Of a stretch of DNA of 64,000 nucleotides, positions 16,046-59,353 are shown piece by piece (positions within the stretch are counted from its first letter, which is position 1; each line of letters starts with the position of its first letter). Source of the stretch: Acidobacteriota bacterium. GTDB taxonomy: Bacteria > Acidobacteriota > CAIWXX01. The notes beneath the pieces were generated by a model that did no database searches, was not told the DNA's origin, and was given only the letters and a program-made list of their open reading frames with translations. Position numbers and translations under genes: made by a program. The stretch is taken from NCBI GenBank assembly GCA_040755995.1, contig JBFMAF010000023.1:256001-320000 (forward strand). The letters run 5' to 3'.

Positions 16046-16059
16046 ACGACCATGGCCGC

Positions 16060-16221: not shown

Positions 16222-18369
16222 ATGGACACGAGATCGGCGGTGAACAGGTTGGTGCGCGTGGGGGTGCTGGCCGTCCCGTGCTCAGCGATGCTGCTTGGGG
16301 CCGAGCTCGGTTCGACGCTGACGGTCGGCGCCAGCTTCGCCGGCGGGGAGTTGATCAAGCAGGGGGGGCACATCGAGCTGAGTCTCAGCCGCCCCCTGGG
16401 ACCGACCGATGGCAGGCTCGCGGTGTTCCTGAACGAGATGGACCTTACGCCCCTCTTTACACTTGAAGGTACGAAGTTCACCATCCGTCCCACGTTTCCG
16501 AGTCTTCCCACAGGCGAGCACACCATGATCGTTTACCTTTTTGCGCCGGATGAATCATGGCGGGAAGTGGCGAGGTTCCCATTGAGGATCGAAGAGACAC
16601 CGTCTGAGCCGGTGGTCCTTGAGCCGGCAGTTCAGGCCGGGGGAACCACCAGCCAATGGTCGGCCACATGGGTGCCTTCCGTGACGCTGAACGTCGCGCA
16701 CCAATCCACACTCGAATACTACCCCGACACCAACCGCCCTGAACGCACTCGCTTCACTGACGTATCCCTCCAGGCCAGCGTGCAAGCAGGCCTGGCCCGA
16801 GGCCTGTTCAATACTCAGACCCAGTTCGACATCATGGGTGCCTCATTCGAGCAACAGGCACTCCGATACGGAGAAATGGGGGATAGCGCGCCGCAGGTTG
16901 ACCTGTCGAGCTACCTGGCCTCGGCCGAAATCAACAAGGTGAAAGTACAGTTGGGGCACACCTCCTTTGGCGGCCACCGCTATCTCATCAACAGCTTCAA
17001 CAGTCGTGGCATCACCCTGACCGTGCCGATTGCCGGGTGGGCGGACGTGTCCTTTTCAGGGATGAATGGCACCAGCATCGTAGGATGGGACAACTTCAGC
17101 GGGCTCAGCCGGCGCAAGCATCAGGTCTACGGCGGGACGGTCGGCCTCGAGCTCGTGCCAAAAAGGCCCGGCGGGGCGCGACTCGAGTTGAGCGCGCTCC
17201 ACGGATCGCTCCTGCCCGTGAGCAACTACAACCAGAGCAACCTCAACGATGCTGAGACCAGCCGAGGCTACGGAGCTCGGATCCTCGCCAGTGATACCGC
17301 GCAGCGTCTGCGCCTGGAAGCTGGCATCGCGCGAAGCCGTTTCACGAATCCCTCGGACCCTCTCCTGGACCAGGGAACAACGGTTGTGCCCGTACGGGCT
17401 GCGACAGGCTTGGCCCACTACCTCGACGTCAGTTATCAGATGTTGAGAGACCGTCCGGTGACCGAGCAGTGGATGTCCGGCTTGACTCTCGCCTTGCGCT
17501 ACAGCCGCGTCGATCCTCTCTATCGAAGCACAGCAGTTTTCGCGCAATCGGACCGGTTCGATACTCAGTACGAGCTTTCGGGAAACGTCGGCGACATCAC
17601 GGCGACGGGTAGTTACACGCGCGGGAACGACAATCTCGCTGGGGTCACATCAGTCCTGAAGACGCTCACCCGGCGCGCGAACGGGCAGTTCGCGGTTCCG
17701 CTCCCGGCGGTGTTCAGCGTCTCCGGTCTCCGGGGCCAGCTGTTTCCGCGAGTGGGCTACTCGTACGACCGTACCCACCAGTATGGTGCGAGCATGCCGA
17801 CCGGCGGTGACTTCGATCCCTCGAGCGTTCCCGATCAGGTGAGCACGAATCAGATCCTGACCGCCGATTGGCAGCTGGCCAACTGGCGGTTCGGCTATCG
17901 CCTGAACCAGTCCTTTCAGGACAACCGCCAGATCGGCCGGGCCGGGTCGGACTTGAAAAACCGGGTCAACAGTATGACCCTCGGAGTGACGCCTCACAAG
18001 AAATTGGATGTCAGCTTCGATCTGAGCTCCGAGCGCTCCCTCAACTACGAGACGGGTGCGCGCTATCAGATCTGGCGCAGCACCGCGGCTCTCAGTCTCC
18101 AGACCACACTCCGTTCAATGCTGACACTGACCATCGGCACGACCTTCGAAGGCGATGTGGCGAAGTCGAACGACAGCCGCAACATCGACCTCGACGCCCA
18201 ATGGGCCGCCGGGTTCAGCAAGCAGAAGGATCGCTTCCGCAAGTTCGACACGCAGTTCTTCATTCGCTACGCACAGCGATATGCCAGCTCGTACGACCAT
18301 GTTTTCATCACGGAAAACCTGACCAGACTGCAGACCGTGAATGCCGGGCTGAAGATTACTTTCTTCTGA
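16222..18369 (+). CDS. Large outer-membrane beta-barrel protein with N-terminal Ig-like region
   Basis: Signal-like N-terminus, many amphipathic strands, C-terminal NAGLKITFF. Confidence 0.7.
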   Translation: MDTRSAVNRLVRVGVLAVPCSAMLLGAELGSTLTVGASFAGGELIKQGGHIELSLSRPLGPTDGRLAVFLNEMDLTPLFTLEGTKFTIRPTFPSLPTGEHTMIVYLFAPDESWREVARFPLRIEETPSEPVVLEPAVQAGGTTSQWSATWVPSVTLNVAHQSTLEYYPDTNRPERTRFTDVSLQASVQAGLARGLFNTQTQFDIMGASFEQQALRYGEMGDSAPQVDLSSYLASAEINKVKVQLGHTSFGGHRYLINSFNSRGITLTVPIAGWADVSFSGMNGTSIVGWDNFSGLSRRKHQVYGGTVGLELVPKRPGGARLELSALHGSLLPVSNYNQSNLNDAETSRGYGARILASDTAQRLRLEAGIARSRFTNPSDPLLDQGTTVVPVRAATGLAHYLDVSYQMLRDRPVTEQWMSGLTLALRYSRVDPLYRSTAVFAQSDRFDTQYELSGNVGDITATGSYTRGNDNLAGVTSVLKTLTRRANGQFAVPLPAVFSVSGLRGQLFPRVGYSYDRTHQYGASMPTGGDFDPSSVPDQVSTNQILTADWQLANWRFGYRLNQSFQDNRQIGRAGSDLKNRVNSMTLGVTPHKKLDVSFDLSSERSLNYETGARYQIWRSTAALSLQTTLRSMLTLTIGTTFEGDVAKSNDSRNIDLDAQWAAGFSKQKDRFRKFDTQFFIRYAQRYASSYDHVFITENLTRLQTVNAGLKITFF

Positions 18370-18378
18370 GGTCGCACA

Positions 18379-19647
18379 ATGAAAAGAACATCCTTGAACC
18401 TTTCTGTTTTCACCGCCGCGATTCTTCTCTTCCTGGTCGAGCCGGCGGCGGCGCAGCCGATCAAAGTCAACCCGACCGCTCTGAACATCAATGCTCAGGG
18501 GGGCACAGTGGCCTTTCTCACCTTCGGCGGATTGACGGACGAGGTGCCCGCCGATGCTTGCTGGTGCCGCGAGTTGACCCCGGCGGCTCCGGACATCGGG
18601 CTCATGTGCGATCCGGCGACCATACTGGGGTGCCTCCCCACCCGCTATGACCAATCCGTGCACAGCGGCACAGGCGGGTTCACGGACATCATGTCCATCC
18701 CGCCCTCTGTGGCAAGGCGCGCCTATCAGGCGGCCGCCGAAGGCGAGACTTCCAGCTTCCATTACGTCAGGCGATTCGTCAGCCCGAGCGGCGGCCCCGA
18801 CCAATACGTGAGCGTGCTCCTCCGGCTGACGGGCGGCGGAGCTCGCACCCCCTTCTCCCTCACATCTGTGACACTCGGCTTCGATCCGCCGCAGACCGTG
18901 ACGGTCGTTCGTCCGGACGAGCTTGTGCCGCCGATCGAGGCCGAGATCGTCTACAGCGGCACAGGCCGGCTTATGGGACGGTGGGAGGTGGTGCTACCCG
19001 GCGATCAGCTGCCCGAAGATGACGACCTGCTCACGGGCGCGACACTCCCGGCCGAAGCTCGTACGCTCCAGCGCCGCTACACCCAGATCAGCACGTTCAA
19101 CGTCTTCCTGCCGCCGACAGGTAGATACACGTTGCCGGGGCCCGATCCATCGCGGCTGCCTACCCGCATTCCCGGCCAGTACTTCATGCTCCTGCGCATC
19201 GAATGCACTGACGACAAGGAAGATGATTCGGACCTAGCCGCGGTTGGCGCCGGGCCCGGGGTGATTCACGCCGGAGCGGTCGCGGCATTTCCGCTGCCGA
19301 CGCTGCGATACTTCGTCGGCGGCACGCCGGACGTCCAGCAGTCCGGTGGCGTCTCATTCGCACCGGCCGATCGGGCCGTTATTCTCACGCTGCCCGTCGT
19401 CTTCACGTGGCCAGTTCTTTCGACGGAGGCGGCGCTCTACCGCCTCGAGATCGAACGGCTTTCAGGTGAGCACATTCTCTCTGCCCTTGTGCCTCCAGAA
19501 CTGAGCGTCTACCGGGCTCCGCCATTGTTGGTGGAGAAGGCGGGGAGGGACGTCGTGCGCTGGAGAGTCCTCGGCCTCGACACCGGTGGCAAGTCGATTA
19601 TCGAATCCGCCTGGCGCACGCTGCGCATCGGTGTGGCCAGGAGTTAG
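18379..19647 (+). CDS. Secreted hypothetical protein
   Basis: GAGG RBS, signal peptide ending AAA-Q, 9 nt after the preceding gene. Confidence 0.75.
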   Translation: MKRTSLNLSVFTAAILLFLVEPAAAQPIKVNPTALNINAQGGTVAFLTFGGLTDEVPADACWCRELTPAAPDIGLMCDPATILGCLPTRYDQSVHSGTGGFTDIMSIPPSVARRAYQAAAEGETSSFHYVRRFVSPSGGPDQYVSVLLRLTGGGARTPFSLTSVTLGFDPPQTVTVVRPDELVPPIEAEIVYSGTGRLMGRWEVVLPGDQLPEDDDLLTGATLPAEARTLQRRYTQISTFNVFLPPTGRYTLPGPDPSRLPTRIPGQYFMLLRIECTDDKEDDSDLAAVGAGPGVIHAGAVAAFPLPTLRYFVGGTPDVQQSGGVSFAPADRAVILTLPVVFTWPVLSTEAALYRLEIERLSGEHILSALVPPELSVYRAPPLLVEKAGRDVVRWRVLGLDTGGKSIIESAWRTLRIGVARS

Positions 19648-19709
19648 GACGATGCGCCGGTCAGGAAGGGCCGTTTCGAAAGAGCGCACCCGTGTGGCTC
19701 GCGAGATCT

Positions 19710-19867
19710 CCCAGATCCGAAAGATGTACAGGCTCAATCCAATTCGCGACCTCCGTCCAGTCTGTCCAAATTGCCACACGATAATTCACCTGCGTGCGCC
19801 GGCCTACAAGGTCAAGGAAGTGAAGTCGTTCCTGCGCAAGGAGAGGCAAGCCCATGCTGCACACTGA
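19710..19867 (+). pseudogene. HNH endonuclease C-terminal fragment
   Basis: DLRPVCPNCHTIIH motif with no N-terminal part. Confidence 0.65.
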
Positions 19868-20079
19868 ACCAACACATATACTGGCGTGAGGTTGACACCA
19901 GGTGTAAGGTGCTCGGAGCAGAGACCCTCGCCTGTCGTCGATGTAGAACCAAGTCCCGCGATACTTGACCGCGATGCCTGCGCGGTCCGGCGGTTTCGGG
20001 GCGGATTGAACTCGAATCAGTCGGCGCGTCACGTTCTTCCAGTAAAGACCTCACCTGCAGGGGTGCGCGTGGTCGTGAC

Positions 20080-20390
20080 GATGAACGAGCGGATGATCCT
20101 CGCCGAATCCGGCAGTGATTCAAGCGGCAGCTCCTCATGGGCATCGAGACGACGGAGCGCCTCCTCGTAGACCAACAGGACCCGCTTGAGCACGCCGTGC
20201 TCTCGCATCAGGTCCTCGCCCGGCGAGACCTCCTGCTCACCGCGGGTGGGACCACTCTGGGTCTACCGGACGCAGCCAAGCTCGCGCATGCGTATCCAAC
20301 GATCGCAAGAGTCGTGCCCGAGGCGAGGGCTTCGAGGAACCGGCGGCGCTCATTGCCGCAACCGTGAACATCTATCTGATCTTTCACAAT
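20080..20390 (-). pseudogene. Frameshifted hemerythrin-like protein with Tat-type leader
   Basis: ERRRFLEAL leader in one frame; EVSPGEDLMREHGVLKRVLLVYEE in another; truncated after IIRSFI. Confidence 0.6.
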
Positions 20391-47032: not shown

Positions 47033-47353
47033 ATGGACCTGAGAGAGAAGAAATGCGTTCCGTGCGAGGGGGGTGTCGACAAGATGACACCCGAGCAGAT
47101 AGCGACATACATCGGGTTGGTACCGGACTGGGAGGCGCGCGACGACAGGCTCTACCGTAACTTTGCCTTCCCGGACTTCGTGGCCGCGATGCGTTTTCTG
47201 AATCGCGTGGCCGAAGTCGCTGAAGCGGAAGGACACCACCCTGATTTCAGCGTGCACTACAACCGTGTCGAGATGACGCTGTGGACGCACGCAATCGGAG
47301 GGCTGTCGGAAAACGACTTCATACTCGCGGCCAAGATAGACGGTCTGCTCTGA
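47033..47353 (+). CDS. phhB: Pterin-4-alpha-carbinolamine dehydratase
   Basis: CVPCEGG, AEAEGHHPD, LWTHAIGGLSENDFILAAKID. Confidence 0.9.
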   Translation: MDLREKKCVPCEGGVDKMTPEQIATYIGLVPDWEARDDRLYRNFAFPDFVAAMRFLNRVAEVAEAEGHHPDFSVHYNRVEMTLWTHAIGGLSENDFILAAKIDGLL

Positions 47354-47404
47354 CCAACCTCACCCTGGTCTTCCATTTTGCATTTTGCCTTGTTGCGCTG
47401 GGCA

Positions 47405-49555
47405 CTATGCAGCAGGCGTGTATGTGATCAGGACGGTCTTCAGGCTTTCAGCGATGTCTTCGATCTTGCCGACTTTCCTGTAGAGGACATTGGAGAAGGA
47501 TTTGGCCAGCTTCTCCAGACGCCGGCCGAGGCCGCTCGCCGATGATACTTCGACGTACAGGAACGCGCTTTTTGAAGTGTGCGCCACCTTCTCGACCTCC
47601 TTGTACACCTCATCTTCGTTGTCGATATAGCCGTCTGTCAGAAGCGTGTAGACGGTGGTCCCGGGCTTCAGCTCTTTCTTCATCTTGCCGAAGACCGGCG
47701 CTTCCAGGTGAGTCCCGCCGTTTTGTTCCTCGAACAGCACCTGTTTGGTCTTGCGGGTCCGCGCTGTGTAGGTTTTCAGGAAGCTGTCCATGCCTCCGAA
47801 GATCGTCGTTGTCGAGAAATTGACGACGCCGAAATGCACGTCCTTTCCCCGCTTCTTGCAGATCTCGAAGATGCCCTTCTTGATCCCGTAGGTTATCCTC
47901 AAGAGGAGATCGAATGGATCTCCGCACATGCTGCCGGAGCTGTCCACGAGCAGGACCCAGTTGTCCGGGACGTCGATGTCGTATTGCTGCGGAGCCCATC
48001 CGCGCACCGGGGACTCGGCCAGCCGGAATTCGTTGAGCTTATATCTGTCCGCCGTCAGTTCCATCAGGATCGGCAGACCGGTCGTCATCTGAGCATCGAT
48101 CACACGCAGCAAATCGAACGACGCCAGCTCGGCCGATGACAGATCCTGCGACGATTTCAGCTCCCACCTGACCTGCTTCCCGAGGCTGACCAGGGCCACG
48201 CCGGCAGACGGCATGCGGAACTCGATCGAAGCGGCGTTCCTCTTGTACAGCTCATCCTTGGCGAATGCCGCCAGAGCGTCAATCGTCGCTTTTCCGAATC
48301 CTCCCCCGGCACCGGCGCCCTGCTTGCCTTTGCTCCCCGCCGGGCGTGCGGGATTCGGATCGCCGGCGATTTCGCGAAGGATCTTGTCCACACCCTCCTT
48401 GCCCAAATCGCTGCTCAGATCCTCGAGCGTCTGTGCGAGGCTCCCGGCGCGTTCCTCCTCGGACGATTCCGGGACCTCTTCGTCACCTCTCCCATGGCTC
48501 GACGTGCGCTGGTCGATCGATCCCTGCTTCTCGAATGCCGAAACGAATGGCACGATCGCCCGCGCGATGCCGGTGATCGCCGGGTAGCGCGTAGATGGAT
48601 CGTCGAGGATGTCATGGATCGCCGCCAGCAAGTGCTGCTGATTCTCGCCGTACTTGGGATTGGCGAGATCGGCGACCAGATCGACTCGTTCGAGGAATTC
48701 CGCCCGCGTGATGCCGTGTTCCAGCAGGACCGAATCGTCCATCTCGCCCACAAGACCGCGGTAGATCCCCCGCAGCGCATCGAGCGCTTCCGGCGCGCAA
48801 ACACCCTTTGCGCGAAGGTCGTCCAGGAAGAGCTCGACCGAGCGCCGGCGCGTGCCCGCATCCGCGATCGCGATCGTCGAGTAGAAAAGGCCGGCCAGCG
48901 AGATCAGCACATCGGTCCGCCGGTTCTTCGCCGAGAGGAGATACATCAGCGGCACCACACCTTGCGGAAACTTCGAGACGTCGCAGCCTTCGATCTGCCT
49001 GGCGCTTCGCGCGAAGACGAACCTGATCTTCTCCCTCAGTATGCCGCTGGCGGCGGAGGCCAGGAAGGCCACGTTCACAACGAAGTCCCAAAGCAGGTTC
49101 TTGCAGTTATCGACGAAGTAGAGCAGCTCCTTGCCGCTGAGCTCGGGCCGGACCTTCTTGAACCCGGCCAGTATTGCCCTGGAAATTGCGCGCTCATCGT
49201 CCCGGCTGTTGGGGCAGACCAGCGGGTGGAGGAGCTCGTGGTCGAGCACAAAGAGGAAGGTGTCGAACTCCAGGTTTCTCAGCAGCGTCTCGTCGGACAT
49301 CCGAGCGGGGATGCGATAGAGCCCCGCTGCGCCGTCCCTGTAGTGAGGCACGGCGAATCCGCTGAAGCCGGATTCGAGCTCAGCCTCGTTGTTTATGTTG
49401 ACGAATATGCGCCGGTTGTCGGTACAGGCCTCGAAAGGCGCGGGTGACTCCGGGTGTCGACCCAGGACGACAGGTGTAGCGGCGTAGATCGGGTAGGCCA
49501 GCTCGACGATCCGCCGCCAGGTCTCGACCGCCTCCGCCAGGACTCCTTCGATCAT
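47405..49555 (-). CDS. VWA-domain protein with N-terminal HExxH metallopeptidase-like region
   Basis: HELLH; low-complexity linker; MIDAS LLVDSSGSM...GGT...LTDG. Confidence 0.8.
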   Translation of the reverse strand: MIEGVLAEAVETWRRIVELAYPIYAATPVVLGRHPESPAPFEACTDNRRIFVNINNEAELESGFSGFAVPHYRDGAAGLYRIPARMSDETLLRNLEFDTFLFVLDHELLHPLVCPNSRDDERAISRAILAGFKKVRPELSGKELLYFVDNCKNLLWDFVVNVAFLASAASGILREKIRFVFARSARQIEGCDVSKFPQGVVPLMYLLSAKNRRTDVLISLAGLFYSTIAIADAGTRRRSVELFLDDLRAKGVCAPEALDALRGIYRGLVGEMDDSVLLEHGITRAEFLERVDLVADLANPKYGENQQHLLAAIHDILDDPSTRYPAITGIARAIVPFVSAFEKQGSIDQRTSSHGRGDEEVPESSEEERAGSLAQTLEDLSSDLGKEGVDKILREIAGDPNPARPAGSKGKQGAGAGGGFGKATIDALAAFAKDELYKRNAASIEFRMPSAGVALVSLGKQVRWELKSSQDLSSAELASFDLLRVIDAQMTTGLPILMELTADRYKLNEFRLAESPVRGWAPQQYDIDVPDNWVLLVDSSGSMCGDPFDLLLRITYGIKKGIFEICKKRGKDVHFGVVNFSTTTIFGGMDSFLKTYTARTRKTKQVLFEEQNGGTHLEAPVFGKMKKELKPGTTVYTLLTDGYIDNEDEVYKEVEKVAHTSKSAFLYVEVSSASGLGRRLEKLAKSFSNVLYRKVGKIEDIAESLKTVLITYTPAA

Positions 49556-49558
49556 GGA

Positions 49559-51388
49559 TCAGCCGCCGAGCGTTCTCGCCATGCGGTGCTGGAAGATGTC
49601 GCCCATCACGGGCGCATGATTGTCTCTACGCGCGTAGTAAAATGCGGTGAGCGCCGTGAGCGCCTCCTGGTCCCTGTTCGCGCCCCGGCACTTCTTCAGG
49701 ATCTCGTCCACTTCAGCCGCGCCATCTGCCACAAACCCCGCCAGCGTGAGCAGGTCGGCTGCCAGCTTGGCGGCGAGTACACTTCTGACCACGTCGGACT
49801 TCTGCGCGCTTTTCGCGATCCGCGCCGTCTCATCCCCCAGCTGGGCTATCAGGAACGACGCTCCCCTGGACTTCTTCAGTGCATCCCTGAGAGCGCTCAC
49901 GATGGCCAGCTTCTTGATCCCGACGTTCGGATCCGTCCGGCGGAATCTGGCCGGCATGTAGCCGATCTCGGCCAGATAGCTCTCGGTCAGCGAGACATAC
50001 TGGAGCAGGGTCTCGTTGATGAGCGGTGTGGCCGGAGCCGCACCTGGATGCTGCTTGCTTCTGGCAAGCAGCGCCGCGGCGCCCGCGATCTCGCGGATGC
50101 TGACGAACCGGTCCATACCGATGTAGGTGCGCACCGGGTCTTCGGCGCGGAGGCCCTGTCTGAGACTCAGCAACGTCGACAACACGTCTCCGAGCTTCTT
50201 GATCTGGACGATGTCGCGGAAGATCATGGGGACCTTGAAGGTGGCGATGATCTCGTGCGCCTTCTTCACCTGCTCTGTTTCCTTGCCGTCCTCCGGTATC
50301 TTGACCTTCAGCCCCAGCCGGCTGCTCCACTGATTCGCTATCCGGGCCTCGTAGGCGAGCTTGCCTGGAAGGTCGCCGCCGAGGATGGCGACAAGCGCGT
50401 CGGTGAGCTCGAGGGCCGAGTACAGTATGGGCTTGTCCGTGCGCGCCGAGTCCGTGACCCATGCGTAGACCGAGAGCCAGTCGGTCTTGATGGAATCGAG
50501 CTGCTTTCTGTCGACGCCGAGATACGCCGCCGTCAGCGACGAGAACGAATCCAGGAAGGCGTCGAATGGTCCATGGATCTCCTCGGTCAGCCAGACTCCG
50601 GAGCCGACGCTGTTGGCCGCATTGCCGAACGTGATCTTGAGAAGGCGACTGTCGACGGCCGCATCGAGCTCGATCGTGCCGGTGAACTTTGCATCGGCGC
50701 TGACGGCCGGGTTCTGGGCGCTCACGATGGTGAGCTTCTTGCGCCGTCCGCCGGACTGGATCGCGGCCTTTCCGTCCAGCGCGGGAATCCTCAGGCCCAG
50801 CTTCACGAACGCGCCCGCGTTGTAGAGCTCGTTGTCGAGGAGCTGGAGAATGTTCTGCGGATCGCCTCGATTGATCTCATCCACGAGCATCGCGGCCATG
50901 CCGTCCACCGCGGACGCCTTGATTCGAGTAACCGGCATCCCGTTCTCGATGCGCCCCTCGAGGAACGGCTGGAACACGTTGTTGAGGAATGCGGTGCCGC
51001 TCAGGCGCAGCGAAATGCAGCTGTCCTGGGGAAAGACAGTCCGCATGAACGCCTGGCTGATGAAGGTCTTGCCGACGCCGCTTTCTCCCTCGAAGAGGAT
51101 CGGGATGTCGCGGAGATTCCCCATCAGCAGCATGTCGAGGTCGTTGATGTCAGCCGCCTCGTCCTCCGGCACGTAGCTGCTGCCGCCGGTCTCTTCGAGC
51201 TGCACGGCATTGTTCGTCTCGTCATAGCGGAGCCTGTAGAGCGGAGTCGGTGCGGCCTGTTTGCGTATCACTCCATAGAGCGCCTGCACGTATGCCAGCA
51301 GCATCGCCGTGTGAAGCACGTTCTCATCGAAGCGACTGCCCATCGCCTCCGCGACCCTGTTCAGGGTGTGACTGCCTGTTTCCACCAT
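49559..51388 (-). CDS. MoxR-like AAA+ ATPase with long C-terminal extension
   Basis: Walker A GESGVGKT, Walker B LVDEINR, SAQNP, LDAAVDSR. Confidence 0.85.
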   Translation of the reverse strand: MVETGSHTLNRVAEAMGSRFDENVLHTAMLLAYVQALYGVIRKQAAPTPLYRLRYDETNNAVQLEETGGSSYVPEDEAADINDLDMLLMGNLRDIPILFEGESGVGKTFISQAFMRTVFPQDSCISLRLSGTAFLNNVFQPFLEGRIENGMPVTRIKASAVDGMAAMLVDEINRGDPQNILQLLDNELYNAGAFVKLGLRIPALDGKAAIQSGGRRKKLTIVSAQNPAVSADAKFTGTIELDAAVDSRLLKITFGNAANSVGSGVWLTEEIHGPFDAFLDSFSSLTAAYLGVDRKQLDSIKTDWLSVYAWVTDSARTDKPILYSALELTDALVAILGGDLPGKLAYEARIANQWSSRLGLKVKIPEDGKETEQVKKAHEIIATFKVPMIFRDIVQIKKLGDVLSTLLSLRQGLRAEDPVRTYIGMDRFVSIREIAGAAALLARSKQHPGAAPATPLINETLLQYVSLTESYLAEIGYMPARFRRTDPNVGIKKLAIVSALRDALKKSRGASFLIAQLGDETARIAKSAQKSDVVRSVLAAKLAADLLTLAGFVADGAAEVDEILKKCRGANRDQEALTALTAFYYARRDNHAPVMGDIFQHRMARTLGG

Positions 51389-51429
51389 GCCACCTCGCTG
51401 ATATCACTCAGCAACGATTTACCACTGTC

Positions 51430-51564
51430 AGGCGAAAAACGTATTGTGATTGAGTCAGGTCGTTGGAGCGGTGTGCCGTCGCGACACGGGTTCTGCCCAC
51501 TCTCTACGCGAGGCGCGGCCAGAGCGGCCTGGCATGCTTCGTCGGCCGTAGGCCGCGCTTCGCT
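51430..51564 (-). repeat. Intergenic repeat, copy D
   Basis: Begins ~6 nt after the TGA of 51571-52248; homologous to copies A and B. Confidence 0.8.
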
Positions 51565-51570
51565 CGGGCA

Positions 51571-52248
51571 TCATGTGATGTACCTCGGCATGTCCTCGAT
51601 CGTGATCTGGCTGGACAATGCCCTGAGCGCCTGCAGTGCAGCGTCGAGAAACGCGGCGCTGCGCAGCAACTTCACGATCGCACCGCCGGGACTCGGCATC
51701 TCGGCGAGCAGCGCGTCGGTGAAAACGGCCGCCTTGTAATCAGCCTTGCTCGCTACCTCAGCGGCGGCCTCTGTGATTGTCAGCTGGCTCAGCAGCATGA
51801 ATCCCATGCCTTCGTAGAATGGATCCACCGAATTGGGATCGCAGCAGCACTTCTTGCAGCCGCCAAACCGTTTCCTGATGGACCCGGCATCCGAAACTGC
51901 GCCACTCTCGCTGCTCAACAGGCCGATCTCGGCGACGATAAGCCCGGTGCGGATCGGCGTCTTGGTCTCTCCTTTGAGAAGTGTCTTGTATATGACTCGA
52001 AGGTTGTCGATCAAACGATCATCGCCCGCGACGACACCGGTGAAGAAGTCGAGCACCACGAGCGACCGGAAGAGGCCCTCGGCGGCAAGGTTCAGCTTGT
52101 GATCCATGATCCGCTTCGGGATGAGCTTCTGCAGGAACGCGTTGGCCGTCAGGTCGAACATGAACTTGTATTCGAATTCATCCTCCCGGTCGGCGCATTT
52201 GAGCATGGCGCCGAGCCTGCGAGCGAGTTGGATATCGGGCGTCTTCAT
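51571..52248 (-). CDS. Hypothetical protein
   Basis: 225-aa ORF with ATGA overlap to the upstream VWA gene; contains GCKKCCCDP. Confidence 0.75.
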   Translation of the reverse strand: MKTPDIQLARRLGAMLKCADREDEFEYKFMFDLTANAFLQKLIPKRIMDHKLNLAAEGLFRSLVVLDFFTGVVAGDDRLIDNLRVIYKTLLKGETKTPIRTGLIVAEIGLLSSESGAVSDAGSIRKRFGGCKKCCCDPNSVDPFYEGMGFMLLSQLTITEAAAEVASKADYKAAVFTDALLAEMPSPGGAIVKLLRSAAFLDAALQALRALSSQITIEDMPRYIT

Positions 52249-53126
52249 TTGCGGCGCTTGCCTCGCGCCTTCTGCGGCGCCGGCTTCTGTCGTGCGGCGA
52301 GCAGGGGGTGGAGCGTCGCCATGACCTGATTCACCTGCTCTGGAGTCTGCCGGATGGCAATGCGCTTCTGGAACGCGGCGTAGTCGTCGGCGAATATGGC
52401 GCAGAGGCCGATGATGCAGTCCACGATGCGGGACGGATCCTTGAGCTCAAGAACCATCTGGCGGCCGAAGCCCTTCTGCCATGTATCGATCCCACTGGTC
52501 TCGGGAACGTAGAGCATATAAGGATCGAAGCGCTGTTGAAGCTCCTTGATGATGTCCGCGGTCTTCAAGTTGCCCTGGACGTCATCGCCGACATACGACT
52601 TTACGTGGCCAGCTTCGATCGTATCCCTGTACGGCTCGTTGCCGCAGATGACCATCAGGCCTCGCTGAGCTTTCCTCATGGTGCAATGTCTCGCATAGTA
52701 ATACATCGTGAGCTCGAAGTACTCGTCGCCGCCGCAAGGGTGGATCGCGTTGATACCCTCCTCCAGGTCCTTGCCCTTCATGAAATCGCAGATCTGGATC
52801 ATGTGGCATGAAGGGTCGCCGATTGCGGCGAAGCTGATCTCCAGATCCGGAAGATGGAGCCTGGCCTCGTTATAGAGCACCGGCAGCTTCGTGAAGATCA
52901 CGCCCGGCCAGTGCGACATCGATCCGCTGATGTCGACGCAGACGACCAGCGGCGTCGGCGAATCCGTTGTGACATCCTTGCCGACCGGTGGCGGCAGCCC
53001 CTTGGATTCGTCCCCCCTGTATTCTCTGACGATTCCCTGCGCCGCGGCCTGCTCCGTGTACTCCTTGCTGCTCTTCTTCAGCGCAGCCTCGCTGTAATCG
53101 TAATCCCAGCCTCCTCCGCCTCCCAT
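52245..53126 (-). CDS. VWA-like protein (paralog 3)
   Basis: MGGGGGWDYDYSE N-terminus; VDISGSM; AIGD; YYARH; GGAGG RBS. Confidence 0.8.
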   Translation of the reverse strand: MGGGGGWDYDYSEAALKKSSKEYTEQAAAQGIVREYRGDESKGLPPPVGKDVTTDSPTPLVVCVDISGSMSHWPGVIFTKLPVLYNEARLHLPDLEISFAAIGDPSCHMIQICDFMKGKDLEEGINAIHPCGGDEYFELTMYYYARHCTMRKAQRGLMVICGNEPYRDTIEAGHVKSYVGDDVQGNLKTADIIKELQQRFDPYMLYVPETSGIDTWQKGFGRQMVLELKDPSRIVDCIIGLCAIFADDYAAFQKRIAIRQTPEQVNQVMATLHPLLAARQKPAPQKARGKRRK

Positions 53127-53136
53127 TTTTCCTCCT

Positions 53137-53979
53137 TCATGTCAGAAGATTGTCGACGGCGTCGAGTTTCATGCGACCTTCGAGAAGCCGGTTGTACCTG
53201 TCGATGATCTCGCTTGTCGCGCCCATATGCTCGGGAATAAAATAGACTCCATCGAGGAACAGCTCGAAGCTCCTCTCATTGAAGTGGATCTTGCCTTTCA
53301 GCACGCCGGCTGTTTTCCTTTCGACCTTGTCGCGGTTCCCTTCGATCAAGCGAATGACGGCTTCCGGTGTAGCGGTCTTCGCTGCGCTGCTCAACGTCTT
53401 CCAGAATTGCGGGTCGAATGTTTTCACGAACTTCGACAGGTACTCCGCCAGCGTAAGCAGCTCGTATGCCTTGCCGTCGATGAAGAGCATTCGTTCGCAT
53501 CCTTCCAGCTCGTCAAGGACCGCACCTTCGCAAAGCGGCGCGATCGTGCCGGCACCGGTCGTGTGCCCGGGGACCCTCGATGGGGTAGCATACACTGCAG
53601 CGACCTTCTCCCGGAGAATGGACTTCAGTTGATCTCCGTAGACTTGCATGGCCGTCGGGAGGTCCACTGAAGGAAGGACCTTCGCGAGCCACTCCCGCTG
53701 AGCTCCAGTGATCTCGTTCGCGTTGGCCGCCCGGTAAGAATCCTCCATCTTCTTCGGCGAATCGTCCTCTTCGATTCCGTACGTCGTGCCCCAGATTTTC
53801 GCAAAACTATCGGCAGGCTTCCTGTTGAGGACAAAGAATCGGCCCTTGTAAAGAAGCGTCAGCTCGTTTCGTCCGATGGAAGCAGCCGGCAGCCCCAGAG
53901 GCGCACTTACCGCGGCCTCGTCGATCGGCATGTCCTCCTTGAAGATGACCGGCCCGCCTTCCACTACTTTTCTGCGCAC
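53137..53979 (-). CDS. Hypothetical protein
   Basis: AAGGAGG RBS before GTG 53979; 280 aa, tightly packed in the block. Confidence 0.75.
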   Translation of the reverse strand: MRRKVVEGGPVIFKEDMPIDEAAVSAPLGLPAASIGRNELTLLYKGRFFVLNRKPADSFAKIWGTTYGIEEDDSPKKMEDSYRAANANEITGAQREWLAKVLPSVDLPTAMQVYGDQLKSILREKVAAVYATPSRVPGHTTGAGTIAPLCEGAVLDELEGCERMLFIDGKAYELLTLAEYLSKFVKTFDPQFWKTLSSAAKTATPEAVIRLIEGNRDKVERKTAGVLKGKIHFNERSFELFLDGVYFIPEHMGATSEIIDRYNRLLEGRMKLDAVDNLLT

Positions 53980-53992
53980 TCCAGAGCCTCCT

Positions 53993-54637
53993 TCACGATC
54001 TCGCCGCGCCCGCGCTCGCACACTTCCGAATCCGCCCAACCTGACAGAGAATGACGTCAACAAGACCGCGCACATCCCGTATCTCGACGACATTCGGCTT
54101 CCCCAGCACCGCTTCCCACTCCGCCGACTCCATATCGTACACGTTTCGGACGATGTAGTTCATGCACACGTGGAAGCGCGCGCGCAGGTCCCGCAGGATA
54201 CGCTCCGTGTAGAGATGCGTCCGGAGGTCGTCTCCGAGGTGGTCGCGGACGTGGCGGCACGAGATGGCATCCCTGTGGACGCCGTTCCCGAACATAAGGA
54301 AGGCTCCCTTGCGCCCTGGGGCCACGCGGCAATGCCTGGCGTAGTAGTACATGGCGATCTCGAAGGACTTGTCGAGCCCGCAGACGTGGACGTCATGGAT
54401 CGATTGCGCTGCTCGATCATGATCGTTGTGGAATTCGGACACCTGCAGCAGATGACACCTGTAATCGCCGATGCCGCATATGCTCACTTCGCATCCCGCC
54501 TCAAGCAGCCGCGGCAGGCACTTCATCACGGCCTTCAGTACGGGTTGCGACCATTCCCGCATGGACCTCCCGGTGTCCACAGCGATGACGACCGGCCATT
54601 TCGAGCGCGAAGTGACGCGCACCGGCAGGCCGTTCAT
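53993..54637 (-). CDS. Degenerate VWA-like protein (paralog 2)
   Basis: PVVIAVDTGRSM, IGD..C..LQV..F, EIAMYYYARHC align to paralogs 1 and 3; lacks the Gly-rich N-terminus. Confidence 0.7.
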   Translation of the reverse strand: MNGLPVRVTSRSKWPVVIAVDTGRSMREWSQPVLKAVMKCLPRLLEAGCEVSICGIGDYRCHLLQVSEFHNDHDRAAQSIHDVHVCGLDKSFEIAMYYYARHCRVAPGRKGAFLMFGNGVHRDAISCRHVRDHLGDDLRTHLYTERILRDLRARFHVCMNYIVRNVYDMESAEWEAVLGKPNVVEIRDVRGLVDVILCQVGRIRKCASAGAARS

Positions 54638-54640
54638 GGT

Positions 54641-55546
54641 TCACGCGTAATCCCGGTCGATCGCGTCGAGCAGGTTGAGCGCCGAGAACAGGGCTTCGCG
54701 CTGGAAGCAGATCTCGTCACCGAACATGAGGGTCTGGTACCCGAGCTCGTAGAGGAATCCGACATCGCCGACTTCCTGGCTCTGCGGGACGCGCGACTTG
54801 CGCATGGATGAGAAGATCCGCGAGGCGGCGATGGCCCTCTTGTCGCACGCGATGATCTGTTTCGTAGCGCGCAGAATCTGGTGAGGCCTCTCCAGCTCGT
54901 TGTAGAGGTCGCCGCGCGCCGCCATGAGCCGCACTGTGCGCTTGTACTTGGGATAGATCTTCTCGACGAAATCCAGTCCCTTCTTCGACTCGATCTTGGC
55001 AATGATCCTGGCGTTTGGATCGAGCGCCAGCAGATCCTGAATATCCGACTCCTGCTCGACATAGGACAGCATGAAATTGTGAAGGCCGGCCTTCGCGGCC
55101 GCCTCGACGTATTCCTTGTCCCTGCCGGTCAGATAACCTTCGATCTTCAGGCTCGGGTCGGCGATGCTCAGCGACATGCCCGAGCCCAGCGGCACCGGCG
55201 AGATTTCTTCGATGACGAGCCTGTTGCCGTTCTCGACCTTGCGGATCATGGCGGAGAACTCGCCAGAGCAGAACGATGCTTCCGTAGGCGTATTCACGCT
55301 GATCCGGTGGCTGATGTCGAGGTAGTAGTAGGGGACGTAAGCGGAATTCACAACTCGCAGCTGCCGGCATTTCAGGTCGACCCAAAGCTCCTTGGGGGCC
55401 ACCTTCTCGGCGAAGGCCGGCAGAAAGTCATCGAGCTTCTCCCTCACGGGAAGAACCGTGTTGAACCTCACTGCGCAGACTATGTCCTGCGAGGCGGCCT
55501 TCTCGATGTAGTCGGCGTAGGCGGGGAGCGTGATGATAGCCTTCAT
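54641..55546 (-). CDS. Pyruvate-kinase-like protein (barrel plus B domain, no C-terminal regulatory domain)
   Basis: RFN, DLKCRQLR, LSYVE, IAKIES, ARGDL, ASRIFSSM, EVGDV, LMFGDE; 301 aa; ATGA overlap with the upstream VWA gene. Confidence 0.8.
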   Translation of the reverse strand: MKAIITLPAYADYIEKAASQDIVCAVRFNTVLPVREKLDDFLPAFAEKVAPKELWVDLKCRQLRVVNSAYVPYYYLDISHRISVNTPTEASFCSGEFSAMIRKVENGNRLVIEEISPVPLGSGMSLSIADPSLKIEGYLTGRDKEYVEAAAKAGLHNFMLSYVEQESDIQDLLALDPNARIIAKIESKKGLDFVEKIYPKYKRTVRLMAARGDLYNELERPHQILRATKQIIACDKRAIAASRIFSSMRKSRVPQSQEVGDVGFLYELGYQTLMFGDEICFQREALFSALNLLDAIDRDYA

Positions 55547-56484
55547 GTGCGGCTCGCTTTCTTCGTTCCTCTTTTCGACGCCTTCTTCGGCCCTGGCGCT
55601 CCGGTCTTTCCTCGAGCCAGCAGCGGGTGGAGTGTCTTCATCACCTGCTCCACCTGCTCCGGCGTCTGCCTGATCGAGATCCGCTTGCTGAATGCGTCGA
55701 TGTCTTCCCGGGCCACCGCTACAAGCCCTATGATGGCGTCGACGATTCTCCGGGGATCCTCCAGCTTCAGCACCATCTGCTTGCCCAGCGTCTCCTCCCA
55801 CTGCTGCCTGATCTCCTCTTCCTTCTGTGCGTTCTTGTATTCGAGCCTCAGGTTGTAAACGGTGAACTTCTGCAGCAGCTCCTTGAACACGTCGCCAGCT
55901 CTCAGATCCCCGGCCGGAACATCTCCCGTCATTCGAGAGACGGCGGCCGCCTTGATCGTTTCGTAGTACCCTTCGTCCCCGCAGAAAACGAAGATCGGCG
56001 CAGCGTCCTTCTTCATCTGGCAGTGGCGAGCGTAGAAGTACGCGGCCAGCTCGTAGCTCTCCTTCGTGCCGGCGCCGCCGCCTCCTTCCGGGAAGATCGA
56101 GTTGATACCCTCCTCCAGATCCTTCCCCTTCCTGAAATCGCACACCTGCAGCGGGAAATTGTCTACATTGGCGTCGCCTATAGCCGCGAAGCTGATCTCG
56201 ACATCTGGTATGTGAAGCTTCGCTTCGTTGTAGAGCACAGGAAGTTTCTCGAAGATGATCTTGGGCCACTCACCCATCGAGCCTGTCACGTCGACCGCGA
56301 CCACGAGCGGAGTCGGGGAATCCGTGCTGATGGTGCGGCCGACCGGCGGCGGAATCCCTCGCGACTCCTTGCCCTCGTATTCGCGTACGACACCTTCCTT
56401 CTTCGCCTCCTCGGCATACTCCTTGCTGCTCTTCTTCAGAGCGCTCTCGCTGTAGTCGTAATCCCATCCGCCGCCGCCGCCCAT
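55543..56484 (-). CDS. VWA-like protein (paralog 1)
   Basis: MGGGGGWDYDYSE; VDVTGSM; AIGDA..D..PLQV..F; EGGGG...ESYEL; GDE. Confidence 0.82.
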   Translation of the reverse strand: MGGGGGWDYDYSESALKKSSKEYAEEAKKEGVVREYEGKESRGIPPPVGRTISTDSPTPLVVAVDVTGSMGEWPKIIFEKLPVLYNEAKLHIPDVEISFAAIGDANVDNFPLQVCDFRKGKDLEEGINSIFPEGGGGAGTKESYELAAYFYARHCQMKKDAAPIFVFCGDEGYYETIKAAAVSRMTGDVPAGDLRAGDVFKELLQKFTVYNLRLEYKNAQKEEEIRQQWEETLGKQMVLKLEDPRRIVDAIIGLVAVAREDIDAFSKRISIRQTPEQVEQVMKTLHPLLARGKTGAPGPKKASKRGTKKASRT

Positions 56485-56497
56485 CAGTCCCTCCTTG

Positions 56498-57781
56498 TCA
56501 TCCGCGCACTGACGTGTCCATTCGCAACGTGTGATCTCTATCGGGCCCAAAAGACAATAACGTTACCGGCACTCCGGTTTCATTCGAAATGAAGTCGACA
56601 TACCTCTGCAGGCCCCGAGGCAATCTCCCGGACCTTTTCACGACAGCCCAATCCTCCTTCGTGAGCTGCTCCCAGCCTGGGAACTCCGTGTACACCGGCC
56701 GGGCGCGCTCCAGCTCATCCGTTCGCCCCGGGAATCGATCCGTCCTGTTCCCGCCGATCTCATACGCCGTGCAGACCAACACGTGATCGAGACCGCCGAG
56801 CACATCCACCTTGGTCAGCGCCAGCTCTGTCGGGCCGTTCAGCATGACGGCGTATTTCAGCGCGACCATGTCGAGCCACCCGCAGCGGCGGATCAGGCCG
56901 GACGTCATTCCGAGCTCGGTGCCTCTCTGCCTCAGCACCTCGCCAGTCCGGCCGGGGAGCTCGGTAGGGAACGGCCCGCGGCTGACCCGCGTCATGTAGG
57001 CTTTCACCACCCCCACGACCTGAGTCACGCTTAGCACCGGAATCCCCGCGCCGGTGCAGGCACCGCCCGATACGGTGGAGGTCGATGTCACGTGCGGATA
57101 CGTGCCGTGGTCCAGGTCGAGGAGCGTTCCCTGGGCGCCTTCGAGCAGGAGACGCTTTCCTTCATGGAGCGCACTGTTGAGCAGCACCTGCGTGTTGGTG
57201 ATGCTGCGGCGAAATTTCCCGGTGAAGGCCTTGAGCACTTGCGCGAGGCCGTCCAGATCCAATGCAGGCTCCCGCCCGCGACACCTCATCTCGATTTCCT
57301 TCAACGCCGCGATTTCCTCGAGTCTGCCCCTCAGCCGCCTCAGGTTCAGGAGCTCGCCGACCCTGACCGCCGTCTGCCGCGCCGCCTTGTCTGCGCAGGC
57401 GGGGCCGATACCCTTTCTCATTGTCACCGACCGGGAGTGCAGGTCAGCCGCGATATGCCAGGGCATCACAATGTGAGCGGAGTCGCTGATCGCCAGGTTG
57501 CGGCAATCGAGCCCGGCAGCGTCGATCTCCTCGGCCTCCGTGAGCAATGTGTCAGGATTGACCATCACTCCGTTGGCGATCACCTTCACGACGTGAGGAT
57601 GGAAGATGCCGGCGGGTATCAGCCTGACGCCGATCCTCCTGCCGTTCACCGTGACGGCATGGCCTGCATTGTCCCCGCCGTTGAACCTTACGACGTAGTC
57701 GAAGTCACCGGCAAGGACGTCGACGATCTTCCCCTTGCCTTCATCACCCCATTGCATTCCGGCTACAACAGTCGCCGTCAT
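56498..57781 (-). CDS. purA: Adenylosuccinate synthetase-like protein with altered substrate loops
   Basis: QWGDEGKG, GGDNAGH, EGAQGTLLD.DHGTYP.VT, RRCGWLD, TKVD; IMP and aspartate loops diverged. Confidence 0.85.
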   Translation of the reverse strand: MTATVVAGMQWGDEGKGKIVDVLAGDFDYVVRFNGGDNAGHAVTVNGRRIGVRLIPAGIFHPHVVKVIANGVMVNPDTLLTEAEEIDAAGLDCRNLAISDSAHIVMPWHIAADLHSRSVTMRKGIGPACADKAARQTAVRVGELLNLRRLRGRLEEIAALKEIEMRCRGREPALDLDGLAQVLKAFTGKFRRSITNTQVLLNSALHEGKRLLLEGAQGTLLDLDHGTYPHVTSTSTVSGGACTGAGIPVLSVTQVVGVVKAYMTRVSRGPFPTELPGRTGEVLRQRGTELGMTSGLIRRCGWLDMVALKYAVMLNGPTELALTKVDVLGGLDHVLVCTAYEIGGNRTDRFPGRTDELERARPVYTEFPGWEQLTKEDWAVVKRSGRLPRGLQRYVDFISNETGVPVTLLSFGPDRDHTLRMDTSVRG

Positions 57782-57901
57782 CCCTTCCCCAGCCTCTTGC
57801 CCGGCCGCATCATGCACTCTGCGTTTTGCATATTGCATCGGGCCAGGGCGGCCACGGGGGGCCTCCCCTACGCTCCGTCTTGCCTTTTACCTCTTGCATT
57901 G

Positions 57902-59353
57902 TCATCCTTTGATGACGACCATCGGGCGGAGGCGCGCGACGCGGCGCGAGAGTCCTGCGCCGTGGCACACGGCGACTACTTCGCTGACGTCCTTGTACGC
58001 CTCGGGGGCTTCCTCTTTGACGGTGACGATTTCGGCCGATCGTACGAGGATGCCCCGGTCTTCGAGCTCGCGGTGGATGGCTCTCCCCCTGCAGGCCTTG
58101 ACCGCAGCGGCTCGACTCATCACGCGGCCGGCGCCGTGGCAGGTCGTCCCGAAGCTCTCTTGTAGGCTGGTTGCGACACCGGCGAGAACGTACGAGCATC
58201 TTCCCATGTCGCCCGGTATGAGCGTAGGCTGCCCCGTCTGCCGGTAGATCGCAGGGACGTCGGGATGGCCGGGCGGGAAGGAGCGAGTGGCGCCCTTGCG
58301 GTGAACCGCCACTGTCATTCGCTTGCCATCGATCACGTGCTCCTCTTTCTTGACTATGTTGTGGGCGTGGTCGTAGATGAGGCCCAGATCGAGGGCTTTG
58401 GGGCCGAGCTCCAGGGCGTGGTAGAAGGCCTCCCGCGCCCAGTGCATCAGCATCTGCCGATTGGCCCACGCGTAATTGGCGGCCGCAGCCATGGCGCCGA
58501 GGTACTCCTTTCCCTCCGGGCTCGATATCGGCACGCAGGCCAGCTGGCGGTCGGGGACGGAGATGCCGTAGCGGTTCATGGCCGCGCTCATGCGGCCGAG
58601 GAAGTCGGTGCAGACCTGGTGGCCGAAACCGCGAGACCCCGAGTGGATCATGAGCGTGACCTGGTCCTTGAAGAGGCCGAAACGGCTCGCCGTGTCCTCG
58701 TCGTAGATCTCGTCGACATACTGTACTTCGAGGAAGTGGTTGCCGGAACCGAGGGTGCCGAGCTGGTCCTTGCCGCGGTCGTAGGCTCGTGAGGACGGCG
58801 CATCAGGGTCGGCCCAGGGCAGGCTTCCCCCGGCCTCGGTGACCGTCAGGTCATCCGGCTCCCCCATGCCGCGATCCACCGCGAACCGCGCGCCGCGTTC
58901 GCACACCCTCGCCAGCTCGTTCTTGCTGAGATGCACGCTGCCCTTCGAGCCGACGCCGCTGGGCACCGTCGCGAAGAGCGCTTCTGCGAGCGTCTTCTTG
59001 TGCGGCTCGATCTCGGCTCGCCTCAGAGCGGACCGGCACAGGCGCACGCCGCAGTTGATGTCGAAGCCGACTCCGCCGGGCGAGACTACCCCGGAATCCC
59101 AGTCCGTCGCCACGACCCCGCCGATCGGGAGGCCGTAGCCGAAGTGCATGTCCGGCATCGCAATGGCGTTGCCGACGATCCCGGGGAGGCTCGCCGAATT
59201 CGCCGCCTGCATGAGTGATTGGTCCTCGCGGATCTTCTCCATGAGCACCTCGTTCGCATACACAATCGCCGGTGCTCGCATGAACGGCTTGAACGAGGCC
59301 GGAATCCTGTACTTGAACTCCGACAGCTTCTCCAACGGCACCCGTTCTGACAT
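57902..59353 (-). CDS. rtcB: RNA ligase RtcB
   Basis: PDMHFGYG, GFDINCG, GSGNHF, HSGSRG, HN, HRKGAT, HGAGR, EEAPEAYK. Confidence 0.95.
   Translation of the reverse strand: MSERVPLEKLSEFKYRIPASFKPFMRAPAIVYANEVLMEKIREDQSLMQAANSASLPGIVGNAIAMPDMHFGYGLPIGGVVATDWDSGVVSPGGVGFDINCGVRLCRSALRRAEIEPHKKTLAEALFATVPSGVGSKGSVHLSKNELARVCERGARFAVDRGMGEPDDLTVTEAGGSLPWADPDAPSSRAYDRGKDQLGTLGSGNHFLEVQYVDEIYDEDTASRFGLFKDQVTLMIHSGSRGFGHQVCTDFLGRMSAAMNRYGISVPDRQLACVPISSPEGKEYLGAMAAAANYAWANRQMLMHWAREAFYHALELGPKALDLGLIYDHAHNIVKKEEHVIDGKRMTVAVHRKGATRSFPPGHPDVPAIYRQTGQPTLIPGDMGRCSYVLAGVATSLQESFGTTCHGAGRVMSRAAAVKACRGRAIHRELEDRGILVRSAEIVTVKEEAPEAYKDVSEVVAVCHGAGLSRRVARLRPMVVIKG

Follow-up and report, generated by a model that had tools for sequence, protein, structure and literature searches.

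In type IV cyclic oligonucleotide-based antiphage signaling systems (CBASS), an enzyme of the QueC family couples a nucleobase to the glycine at position 2 (Gly2) of a partner protein with the motif M(G/S)G(G/S)GG, and QatB requires an N-terminal MGTS, as described in two reports (bioRxiv 10.1101/2025.04.06.647259; PMC13279940). Other papers describe von Willebrand factor type A (vWA) ternary conflict systems with VMAP, iSTAND, and other third components, where a MoxR-like ATPase stands beside a vWA partner (PMC7159879; PMC10907252), and a jumbo-phage pair in which the vWA partner of MoxR is fused to an HExxH metallopeptidase-like region (PMC7824862). Features of both groups are found together in a block of nine co-oriented genes within the window analyzed here, a 64,000-nucleotide stretch of an Acidobacteriota genome (assembly GCA_040755995.1, contig JBFMAF010000023.1, positions 256,001 to 320,000). 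Running on the minus strand from position 57781 to 47405, the block encodes a PurA-like protein, VWA1, a pyruvate kinase (PK)-like protein, VWA2, the unnamed protein U1, VWA3, the unnamed protein U2, an AAA+ ATPase, and a protein with HExxH and vWA regions (HVWA), the order already given in an earlier note on this sequence. Module A comprises the three vWA paralogs, the PK (which lacks the C domain and is here called mini PK), and the PurA variant, and module B comprises U1, U2, the MoxR-like ATPase, and HVWA. The block is an acquired two-module operon in which, with a probability of roughly 0.4, the PurA variant would attach a purine nucleotide to Gly2 of vWA proteins, driven by guanosine triphosphate (GTP) and fuelled by the mini PK.

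With the Cap9-CdnD and QatC-QatB pairs of the first two reports, the block shares an amine ligase of nucleotide biosynthesis beside a Gly2-tailed partner; VWA1 and VWA3 fit the acceptor motif, and relatives of the block in DPANN archaea carry a QueC-family gene. It differs from those pairs in that its putatively GTP-driven ligase has the PurA fold and its partner is a vWA protein, and CD-NTase, Cap10, QatA, and QatD are absent from the block, with no such PADLOC match for the nine proteins. By analogy, the block may work like the Cap9/QatC systems, but it is not a member of them. The likeness to the MoxR-vWA systems lies in the ATPase beside a vWA partner and in the fusion of that partner to an HExxH region, whereas the block has no recognized third component (neither U1 nor U2 has a family match in the libraries), no effector on a vWA protein, a very divergent ATPase of 609 amino acids, variable genes with a shared tag, and a coupling to nucleotide enzymes. 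A cassette of kinase, vWA, mini PK in some cases, and adenylosuccinate synthetase (AdSS)-like genes, found in phage LifeSavor (MG872839) and a Rhodococcus plasmid (NZ_CP093381), has the same Gly2 vWA family and likewise adjoins a PurA-family enzyme without the aspartate Arg; in the block, in contrast, PurA was independently recruited, the kinase is absent, and the ATPase, HVWA, U1, and U2 are attached. The LifeSavor locus (L170, 151339-155874) comprises a kinase, a 605-aa vWA-containing protein with a Met-Gly start, a small gene, and a PurA-like gene. The literature search, which covered few subscription journals, found no paper on the block architecture or on a link between PurA and vWA Gly2, and a look-up by terms in the accessible text of PMC9503650 and PMC13329287 returned no description of the block cassette; loci of this kind may be present in the supplementary tables that accompany PMC7159879, PMC9503650, and PMC13329287.

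The PurA variant and the glycine starts of the vWA proteins

The new observation is that, with few exceptions, vWA partners encoded near a ligase of the PurA or QueC family have a Met-Gly start. Among cellular, plasmid, and phage loci with such a ligase gene, 21 of 21 full-length vWA copies start Met-Gly, a count that includes the two of the window and some near-duplicates and leaves aside the tail-less VWA2. None of the 41 vWAs from loci with NadE does so, all being Met-Tyr, and in loci with neither ligase nor NadE the start is found in 2 of 32 copies, both from a short re-fetch of the QueC locus L059, with one start not callable. The viral set was drawn from 80 of 532 vWA matches and 80 of 299 AdSS-like matches, giving 160 further loci whose vWAs were clustered at 70% identity into 72 groups. 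Met-Gly opens 65 of the 67 ligase-linked groups with a callable ATG (two more groups have no callable start), against a background of 169 in 1411 open reading frames (ORFs) (12%). One of the two exceptions has an internal Met-Gly start, and the other reads Ile-Gly-Gly-Gly with no ATG; the three viral groups without a ligase comprise two with Met-Ser and one with Met-Gly close to the end of its contig. Gly2 is constant, but the next residue may be G, S, Y, N, D, H, F, or T, and one viral copy (L386) opens with MGTS, like QatB. A vWA is present in 75 of the 80 viral AdSS-like loci. The strong part of this evidence is the retention of Gly2 across very divergent sequences. In the vWA tree, the block proteins group with DPANN vWAs from QueC loci (Shimodaira-Hasegawa-like approximate likelihood ratio 96), which argues for an exchange of ligases next to an unchanged tail.

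The vWA labels of the earlier note stand on motifs of the metal ion-dependent adhesion site (MIDAS) type, while the Pfam and NCBIfam matches of VWA1 to VWA3 are weak and below cut-off, and the motif of VWA2 is degenerate. In a MIDAS alignment of 30 rows, D64, G67, and S68 are invariant and D169 nearly so, and HHalign of VWA1-3 against HVWA gives 54%. VWA2 is 28-34% identical to VWA1 and VWA3, stands at the same position in the related locus L023, and is probably a duplicate of the bacterial lineage.

The PurA variant has the whole fold of PurA (PF00709, TIGR00184) and passes the NCBIfam purA equivalog cut-offs (472 against 402 and 414 against 396 bits), so that it is less atypical overall than had been claimed for both metabolic homologs; the claim holds for the PK-like protein (61 against 306 bits). 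In alignment, it retains the catalytic and GTP-site residues D13, H41, Q217, R298, K324, and D326, which we take to be the equivalents of E. coli D13, H41, Q224, and the GTP-site Arg, Lys, and Asp. It departs from PurA at the aspartate Arg (L296, E. coli R303) and at the Thr of the loop that binds inosine monophosphate (IMP) (M121, E. coli T129), both of which are conserved in 16 of 16 full-length canonical rows and replaced in the block copies; in addition, the 120s loop is shortened, and the GGxNAGHT motif has become NGGDNAGHA. The block PurA of the Thermoanaerobaculia genome G301 has the same Met, loop deletion, and NGGDNAGHA, with Ala at the Arg position. The residue at the T129 position takes part in binding the IMP phosphate. 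E. coli R303 contacts both aspartate and the IMP O2', according to PMC8342488.

In a PurA tree of 20 rows, with one archaeal row not picked up, the block copies form their own clade (100/100) on a long stem inside canonical PurA and apart from the AdSS-like clade. From these sequences, the block PurA appears to be an independent recruit from canonical PurA, and the aspartate Arg has been lost twice, in the block clade (L/A) and in the AdSS-like clade, where a canonical-like loop is seen in 2 of 56 distinct viral loops. The variant also differs from phage PurZ (NF038379), whose model scores it far below the cut-off (97 against 300 bits). Its D13 is kept, whereas Ser replaces the catalytic Asp13 in PurZ. 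The second, canonical copy in G301, the separate clade, and the residue changes support the view that the block purA is an accessory, altered copy.

Composition, relatives, and origin of the insert

The spacings between the nine genes of Table 1, from the purA-like gene to HVWA, are 13, -4, 3, 13, 10, -4, 182, and 3 nt, in agreement with the short gaps, overlaps, and single repeat-filled gap described before. Of the nine gene products, the PurA-like and PK-like proteins alone score above Pfam cut-offs; PADLOC gave no match better than E=0.02 for the nine proteins, and promoter and terminator scans gave signals at shuffle level. Because of the PADLOC result and the frequency of the related vWA-PurA-like cassette in viral contigs, the suggested role in phage defence has no direct support.

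Table 1. Features of the insert and its flanks, in window coordinates.
Feature	Coordinates	Strand	Length	Remarks
Whole insert	47354..57901		10.5 kb	Between rtcB and pterin-4a-carbinolamine dehydratase gene
PurA variant	56498..57781	-	427 aa	PF00709 484 bits
VWA1	55543..56484	-	313 aa	Full MIDAS-type motif, Met-Gly5 N-terminus; proposed acceptor; PHROG 2971 E=6e-32
MGGGGG tail of VWA1	56467..56484	-		Fits CBASS acceptor motif M(G/S)G(G/S)GG
Mini pyruvate kinase	54641..55546	-	301 aa	Barrel plus lid; allosteric C domain absent
VWA2	53993..54637	-	214 aa	Tail-less paralog, degenerate metal motif
U1	53137..53979	-	280 aa	GTG start; N-terminal KVVxGxxxxFxDD tag
U1 N-terminal tag	53935..53979	-		Resembles shared N-termini of variable genes near related AAA-HVWA pairs
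VWA3	52245..53126	-	293 aa	Shares 56% identity and the Gly tail with VWA1; metal motif altered in part
U2	51571..52248	-	225 aa	All-helical; accompanies U1 in both contexts
Gap between U2 and ATPase	51389..51570	.	182 nt	Dispersed host repeat, core about 51499-51564
MoxR-like AAA+ ATPase	49559..51388	-	609 aa	Walker A, Walker B (DEINR), sensor-1 (QNP), arginine-finger motif, long C-terminal extension
HVWA	47405..49555	-	716 aa	N-terminal HExxH...NxxxD metallopeptidase-like region, C-terminal vWA (DSSGS, TDG)
rtcB	57902..59353	-		Host flank outside insert; 80% identical in G001 and G002
Pterin-4a-carbinolamine dehydratase	47033..47353	+		Host flank outside insert; PF01329; adjoins rtcB in G001

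In the same-family genome G001, the site is empty, with rtcB and the pterin dehydratase gene 15 nt apart, and the block-type vWA is rare in the phylum, VWA1 having matched 4 of 301 genomes (this one included), the other three of which carry the AdSS-like cassette. The nine genes, purA included, thus arrived together as an acquired insert. The rtcB-Memo interval of a second genome of the family, G002 (L229:2243-7427), is occupied by unrelated genes, which marks the site as a variable hotspot. The GC content is a weak marker of the insert (0.57-0.63 against 0.64-0.66 in three flanking genes). With its own copy counted, the repeat in the 182-nt gap gives 68 BLASTN matches (E<=1e-5), spread over 31 of 56 contigs, and represents a later insertion, U2 and the ATPase gene being 3 nt apart in L023 and overlapping in L113. 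The gap was also considered as a system-specific RNA and ruled out, as the repeat is genome-wide and absent from related loci. The repeat core is ~65 nt long and occurs in some 65 copies, several of them no more than 140 nt from contig starts, and the interval from rtcB to the purA variant contains another dispersed repeat, a weaker one, at 57835-57893 (4 matches; 3 other contigs).

That the genes occur together elsewhere, as had been expected, is borne out by loci in bacteria and DPANN archaea. The Thermoanaerobaculia locus L023 (G301) has all nine genes in the same order at 37-72% identity, and the order is therefore not due to chance; in the class of G301, the block-type ATPase is present in 1 of 301 genomes. 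In five DPANN or unbinned loci, genes for Ham1, a thymidylate-synthase-like protein, and a QueC-like protein replace purA. The order in G302 (L059, on the same contig as L113), L110, and L111 is vWA, vWA, PK, Ham1, thymidylate-synthase-like, QueC-like, U1, U2, ATPase, and HVWA, with extra genes inserted within the vWA-to-HVWA order in L110. G643 has one vWA, and its thymidylate-synthase-like gene was not resolved by the ORF filter; L112 is cut before Ham1, and the vWA-PK-QueC part is also present in L024 and L064, both of them short contigs. Further copies may exist, as homologs of the PK, the ATPase, and U2 have longest contigs of identical length (43224, 96619, 46065, 15613, and 7537 bases). 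Viral scans recovered one mini-PK locus and one far ATPase locus and did not find the full block. A DPANN origin of the block is the simplest reading, from a tree without a firm root, and the block itself is real, acquired, rare, and conserved across domains.

The mini PK resembles pyruvate kinase (PF00224, 47.8 bits, cut-off 30; closest solved chain 8IW2, 321 aa) in its barrel, lid, Arg, Asn, Asp, Lys, KIE, and RGD, and differs in lacking the C domain and in being tied to vWA; TIGR01064 gives 61 bits (cut-off 306). The residues R27, N29, S161, K184, E186, and G276-D277 are invariant in 73 of 73 rows, while the conservation of the DLK and ARGD motifs arises partly from the construction of the search. 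A separate housekeeping pyk, one of the points the earlier note had left to be checked, is present in full length on contig C54, and relative to it the mini PK has NTVLP for NFSHG, ASRIF for ATQML, and MFGDE for MLSxET. There are 1410 homologs of the mini PK, the named ones mostly from DPANN archaea. In the neighbourhoods of the best 80 of 363 genome matches, a vWA homolog is present in 68, purA in 1, and the ATPase in 2. Over 81 loci, the window included, the neighbours comprise protein kinase (54, by Pfam) and, with labels from motif reading, NUDIX/NadM-like (53), NadE-like (50), NAD-kinase-like (19), PncB-like (18), and PncA-like (15) proteins; the one NAD-kinase-like protein examined has no Pfam match. 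Given the frequency of vWA and the variety of the neighbours, the core of module A is thus the pair of vWA and mini PK with exchangeable nucleotide enzymes, and the nucleotide theme proposed for the block holds for the variable genes of related loci. The mini PK was also considered as a stand-in for a missing nucleoside diphosphate kinase and rejected, ndk being present in 4 of 5 genomes tested. Large NAD-salvage-like clusters of Woesearchaeota (L031, L037, L044, L056, L078, L087, and others) combine PncB, PncA, NadE, NUDIX, NadM-like, kinase, and vWA genes with a 290-aa gene of no named family, mini PK, NAD-kinase-like, and ADP-ribosylglycohydrolase-like genes, and Anaerolineae have a compact NUDIX-vWA-PK-NadE version.

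The ATPase module

The MoxR label given to the ATPase agrees with profile comparison, in which HHalign places it closest to MoxR (95.7%, E=9e-9, 144 columns), ahead of sigma-54 activators (83%) and Clp/FtsH-type proteins (78%), while library matches stay below cut-off: the window protein has no AAA_3 or AAA_5 match (PF07726/PF07728), and 37 of 55 homologs match AAA_5 at E<=0.05 (best 1.4e-5, sub-cut-off). The family is small, with 61 proteins, and is present in 19 of 401 genomes of the phylum of G302. Wide regions were fetched for 14 of these 19 genomes plus L059, and the usual neighbours of the ATPase there are an HVWA homolog and between one and four variable genes with a common N-terminal peptide. 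In HVWA, H106, E107, H110, N153, D157, D538, S540, S542, and D641 are conserved in at least 90% of 19 homologs. HVWA has no Pfam match to PF13203 (DUF2201), and HHalign to one PF13203 protein gives 13.6%, on the vWA motif only. A classical DUF2201 peptidase-vWA gene was seen between two AAA ATPases in L195 (G125). Sequence searches of the PDB returned nothing significant for the ATPase, the long form of U1, or the vWA profiles. Far ATPase-HVWA pairs with two or three tagged paralogs stand beside reverse-transcriptase-like genes (so labeled by sequence reading) in L114, L119, L162, L163, and L167, in three cases inside provirus-like gene runs; diversity-generating retroelements are possibly present at these loci.

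Short U1 homologs open with the KVVxGxxxxFxDD tag. A profile built from 27 tags (one of 28 was skipped) was applied to ORF starts and reached at least 7 bits at 6 of 125 in loci of mid-distance ATPases, at 0 of 154 in loci of far ATPases, and at 2 of 1007 in control loci. Long U1 homologs, of which there are about 20, occur in another operon and have no tag; their C-terminal domain contains an invariant HP...C (H418, P419, C431), which we take to be E2-like, a putative assignment drawn from this motif and from JAB and ThiF neighbours in one locus, L081. That locus (12330-20111, Nanoarchaeia, G303), directly downstream of the NAD cluster, is an operon with a small unnamed gene, U1 with the E2-like domain, a JAB-domain protein (below cut-off), a ThiF/E1 protein, U2, and a protein kinase, and by its gene content could be an archaeal ubiquitin-like conjugation system. 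U1 and U2 have no Pfam, PHROG, or PADLOC family match. Their AlphaFold2 models have a predicted local distance difference test score of 89 for U1 (best PDB match Z 6.0 over 57 residues) and 92 for U2 (Z 3.7); Foldseek and VIA-align gave no convincing PDB fold for either model, which does not by itself show new folds, and the ESM Atlas gave no usable lead for them.

A two-module model and its alternatives

PurA activates IMP at O6 using GTP. With its catalytic residues kept, the variant would carry out the same GTP-dependent activation on IMP or a closely related purine nucleotide and, with the aspartate pocket lost, would accept the free alpha-amine of Gly2 in VWA1 and VWA3 after removal of Met. 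The vWA N-terminus is predicted to end up with an adenine nucleotide linked through N6, a counterpart of CBASS deazaguanylation produced by an enzyme of a different fold, and a nucleotide joined to protein is favoured by the evidence over the free non-standard nucleotide proposed in the earlier note. The mini PK, free of allosteric control, may regenerate GTP from guanosine diphosphate and phosphoenolpyruvate, and in the DPANN relatives the QueC-like protein would occupy the ligase slot. In module B, the MoxR-like ATPase and its peptidase-vWA partner may recognize N-terminally tagged proteins, here U1 with U2, the tag itself being observed, and could remodel or cleave them. In the least supported step, the modified vWA would serve as a nucleotide-status switch for module B under stress or conflict. 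A broader and more tentative version, somewhat less probable than the working model, holds that on at least two occasions enzymes of the PurA family became protein ligases that attach a purine nucleotide through N6 to the N-terminal Gly of a vWA protein, that they are interchangeable with QueC-like ligases in a widespread phage, bacterial, and DPANN cassette, and that the tagged vWA controls a MoxR/peptidase machine for N-terminally tagged clients, one of them derived from a prokaryotic E2-like protein.

Several points weigh against this model. The Gly2 adduct is predicted from sequence rather than from biochemistry or structure, and the start codons of the vWA genes were chosen with a rule based on ribosome-binding sites. 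Gly2 may be no more than an ancestral trait: on the vWA tree, it was lost in about two to four lineages, so that the counts are not independent events and offer few independent contrasts. NAD clusters keep the vWA-PK core without Gly2, and the core role thus does not depend on the tail. Replacement of the Thr equivalent to T129 should make binding of the IMP phosphate weaker, which leaves the nucleotide uncertain. Module B usually occurs without module A, which, among the wide regions fetched for 14 ATPase-bearing genomes plus L059, was nearby only in G302 and G643. Lastly, the variant still scores above the purA equivalog cut-offs and is the only purA in the assembly, and of the two block-type purA copies seen, one is split across two contigs.

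In the main alternative, module A would repair a small-molecule pool, the PurA variant re-aminating IMP, dIMP, or a similar deaminated nucleotide with ammonia or another small amine, the mini PK supplying GTP, and the vWAs serving as unmodified scaffolds whose Gly tail docks or switches the enzyme. Such a role is suggested by the exchangeable genes, all of which act on nucleotides that have undergone deamination or deamidation (by Pfam, Ham1, thymidylate-synthase-like, and QueC-like; by motif reading, NadE, PncA, and PncB), by the prevalence of NAD-salvage clusters among mini-PK loci (NadE-like 50/81, NUDIX/NadM-like 53/81), and by the loss of R303, which also removes the ribose O2' contact, as in the dGMP-using PurZ (PMC8342488). 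It does not predict a near-invariant Gly2 restricted to loci with PurA or QueC ligases, and D13 and the low PurZ score speak against a PurZ-like enzyme; overall, this account is possible and rather unlikely. Less probable again is that two independent modules, compatible with either chemistry of module A, were juxtaposed once in a DPANN ancestor and have since moved as a block with no functional link. The modules are indeed separable, each being common without the other, which corrects the earlier note's picture of a single block: module A lacks B in 78 of 80 mini-PK loci, module B lacks A in most of the fetched Nanoarchaeota-phylum loci, U1 and U2 relatives lie in a JAB-ThiF operon without the ATPase, and a host repeat separates U2 from the ATPase gene here. 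Yet the fused order has survived from the DPANN-type loci (G302, G643, L110, and L111, with L112 partial) to two bacteria at 41-66% identity, and it outlasted both the ligase swap and the vWA duplication that put VWA3 between U1 and U2.

The sole assembled purA, in a genome rated 99.84% complete with purB present, at first sight agrees with a refuting condition of the earlier note and would also fit a working adenylosuccinate synthetase that took over after loss of the native gene, the rest of the block being a passenger island, and the equivalog scores agree with this. In G001 and G002, however, purA is followed by priA (TIGR00595) and then by pmm-, manC-, and rlmI-like genes, so named by reading their sequences; no orthologs of these four were found in this assembly, and the G002 genes beyond the segment map to C1:227-1775, within the first 1.8 kb of contig C1. 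The absence of the whole segment next to a contig start points to an assembly gap, where the canonical purA of this genome probably lies in spite of the completeness rating. As a canonical purA accompanies the block copy in G301, and the Thr and Arg of all canonical rows are absent from the block copies, replacement of the housekeeping enzyme is very improbable.

To our knowledge, PurA-fold enzymes act on small molecules only. If the two-module model is correct, modification of a protein N-terminus by a PurA would be chemically novel and amount to a new form of protein tagging, and the conjugation of nucleobases to proteins would have a second route in addition to that of QueC in CBASS. Cultured models of the PurA-like/vWA pairing exist in phage LifeSavor and Rhodococcus plasmids. 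The block also yields two confidently modeled proteins, U1 and U2, that resemble no solved structure, and it brings together two modules not described before. The same activity would explain an uncharacterized PurA-like gene in at least 200 mycobacteriophage records and hundreds of viral contigs (299 matches).

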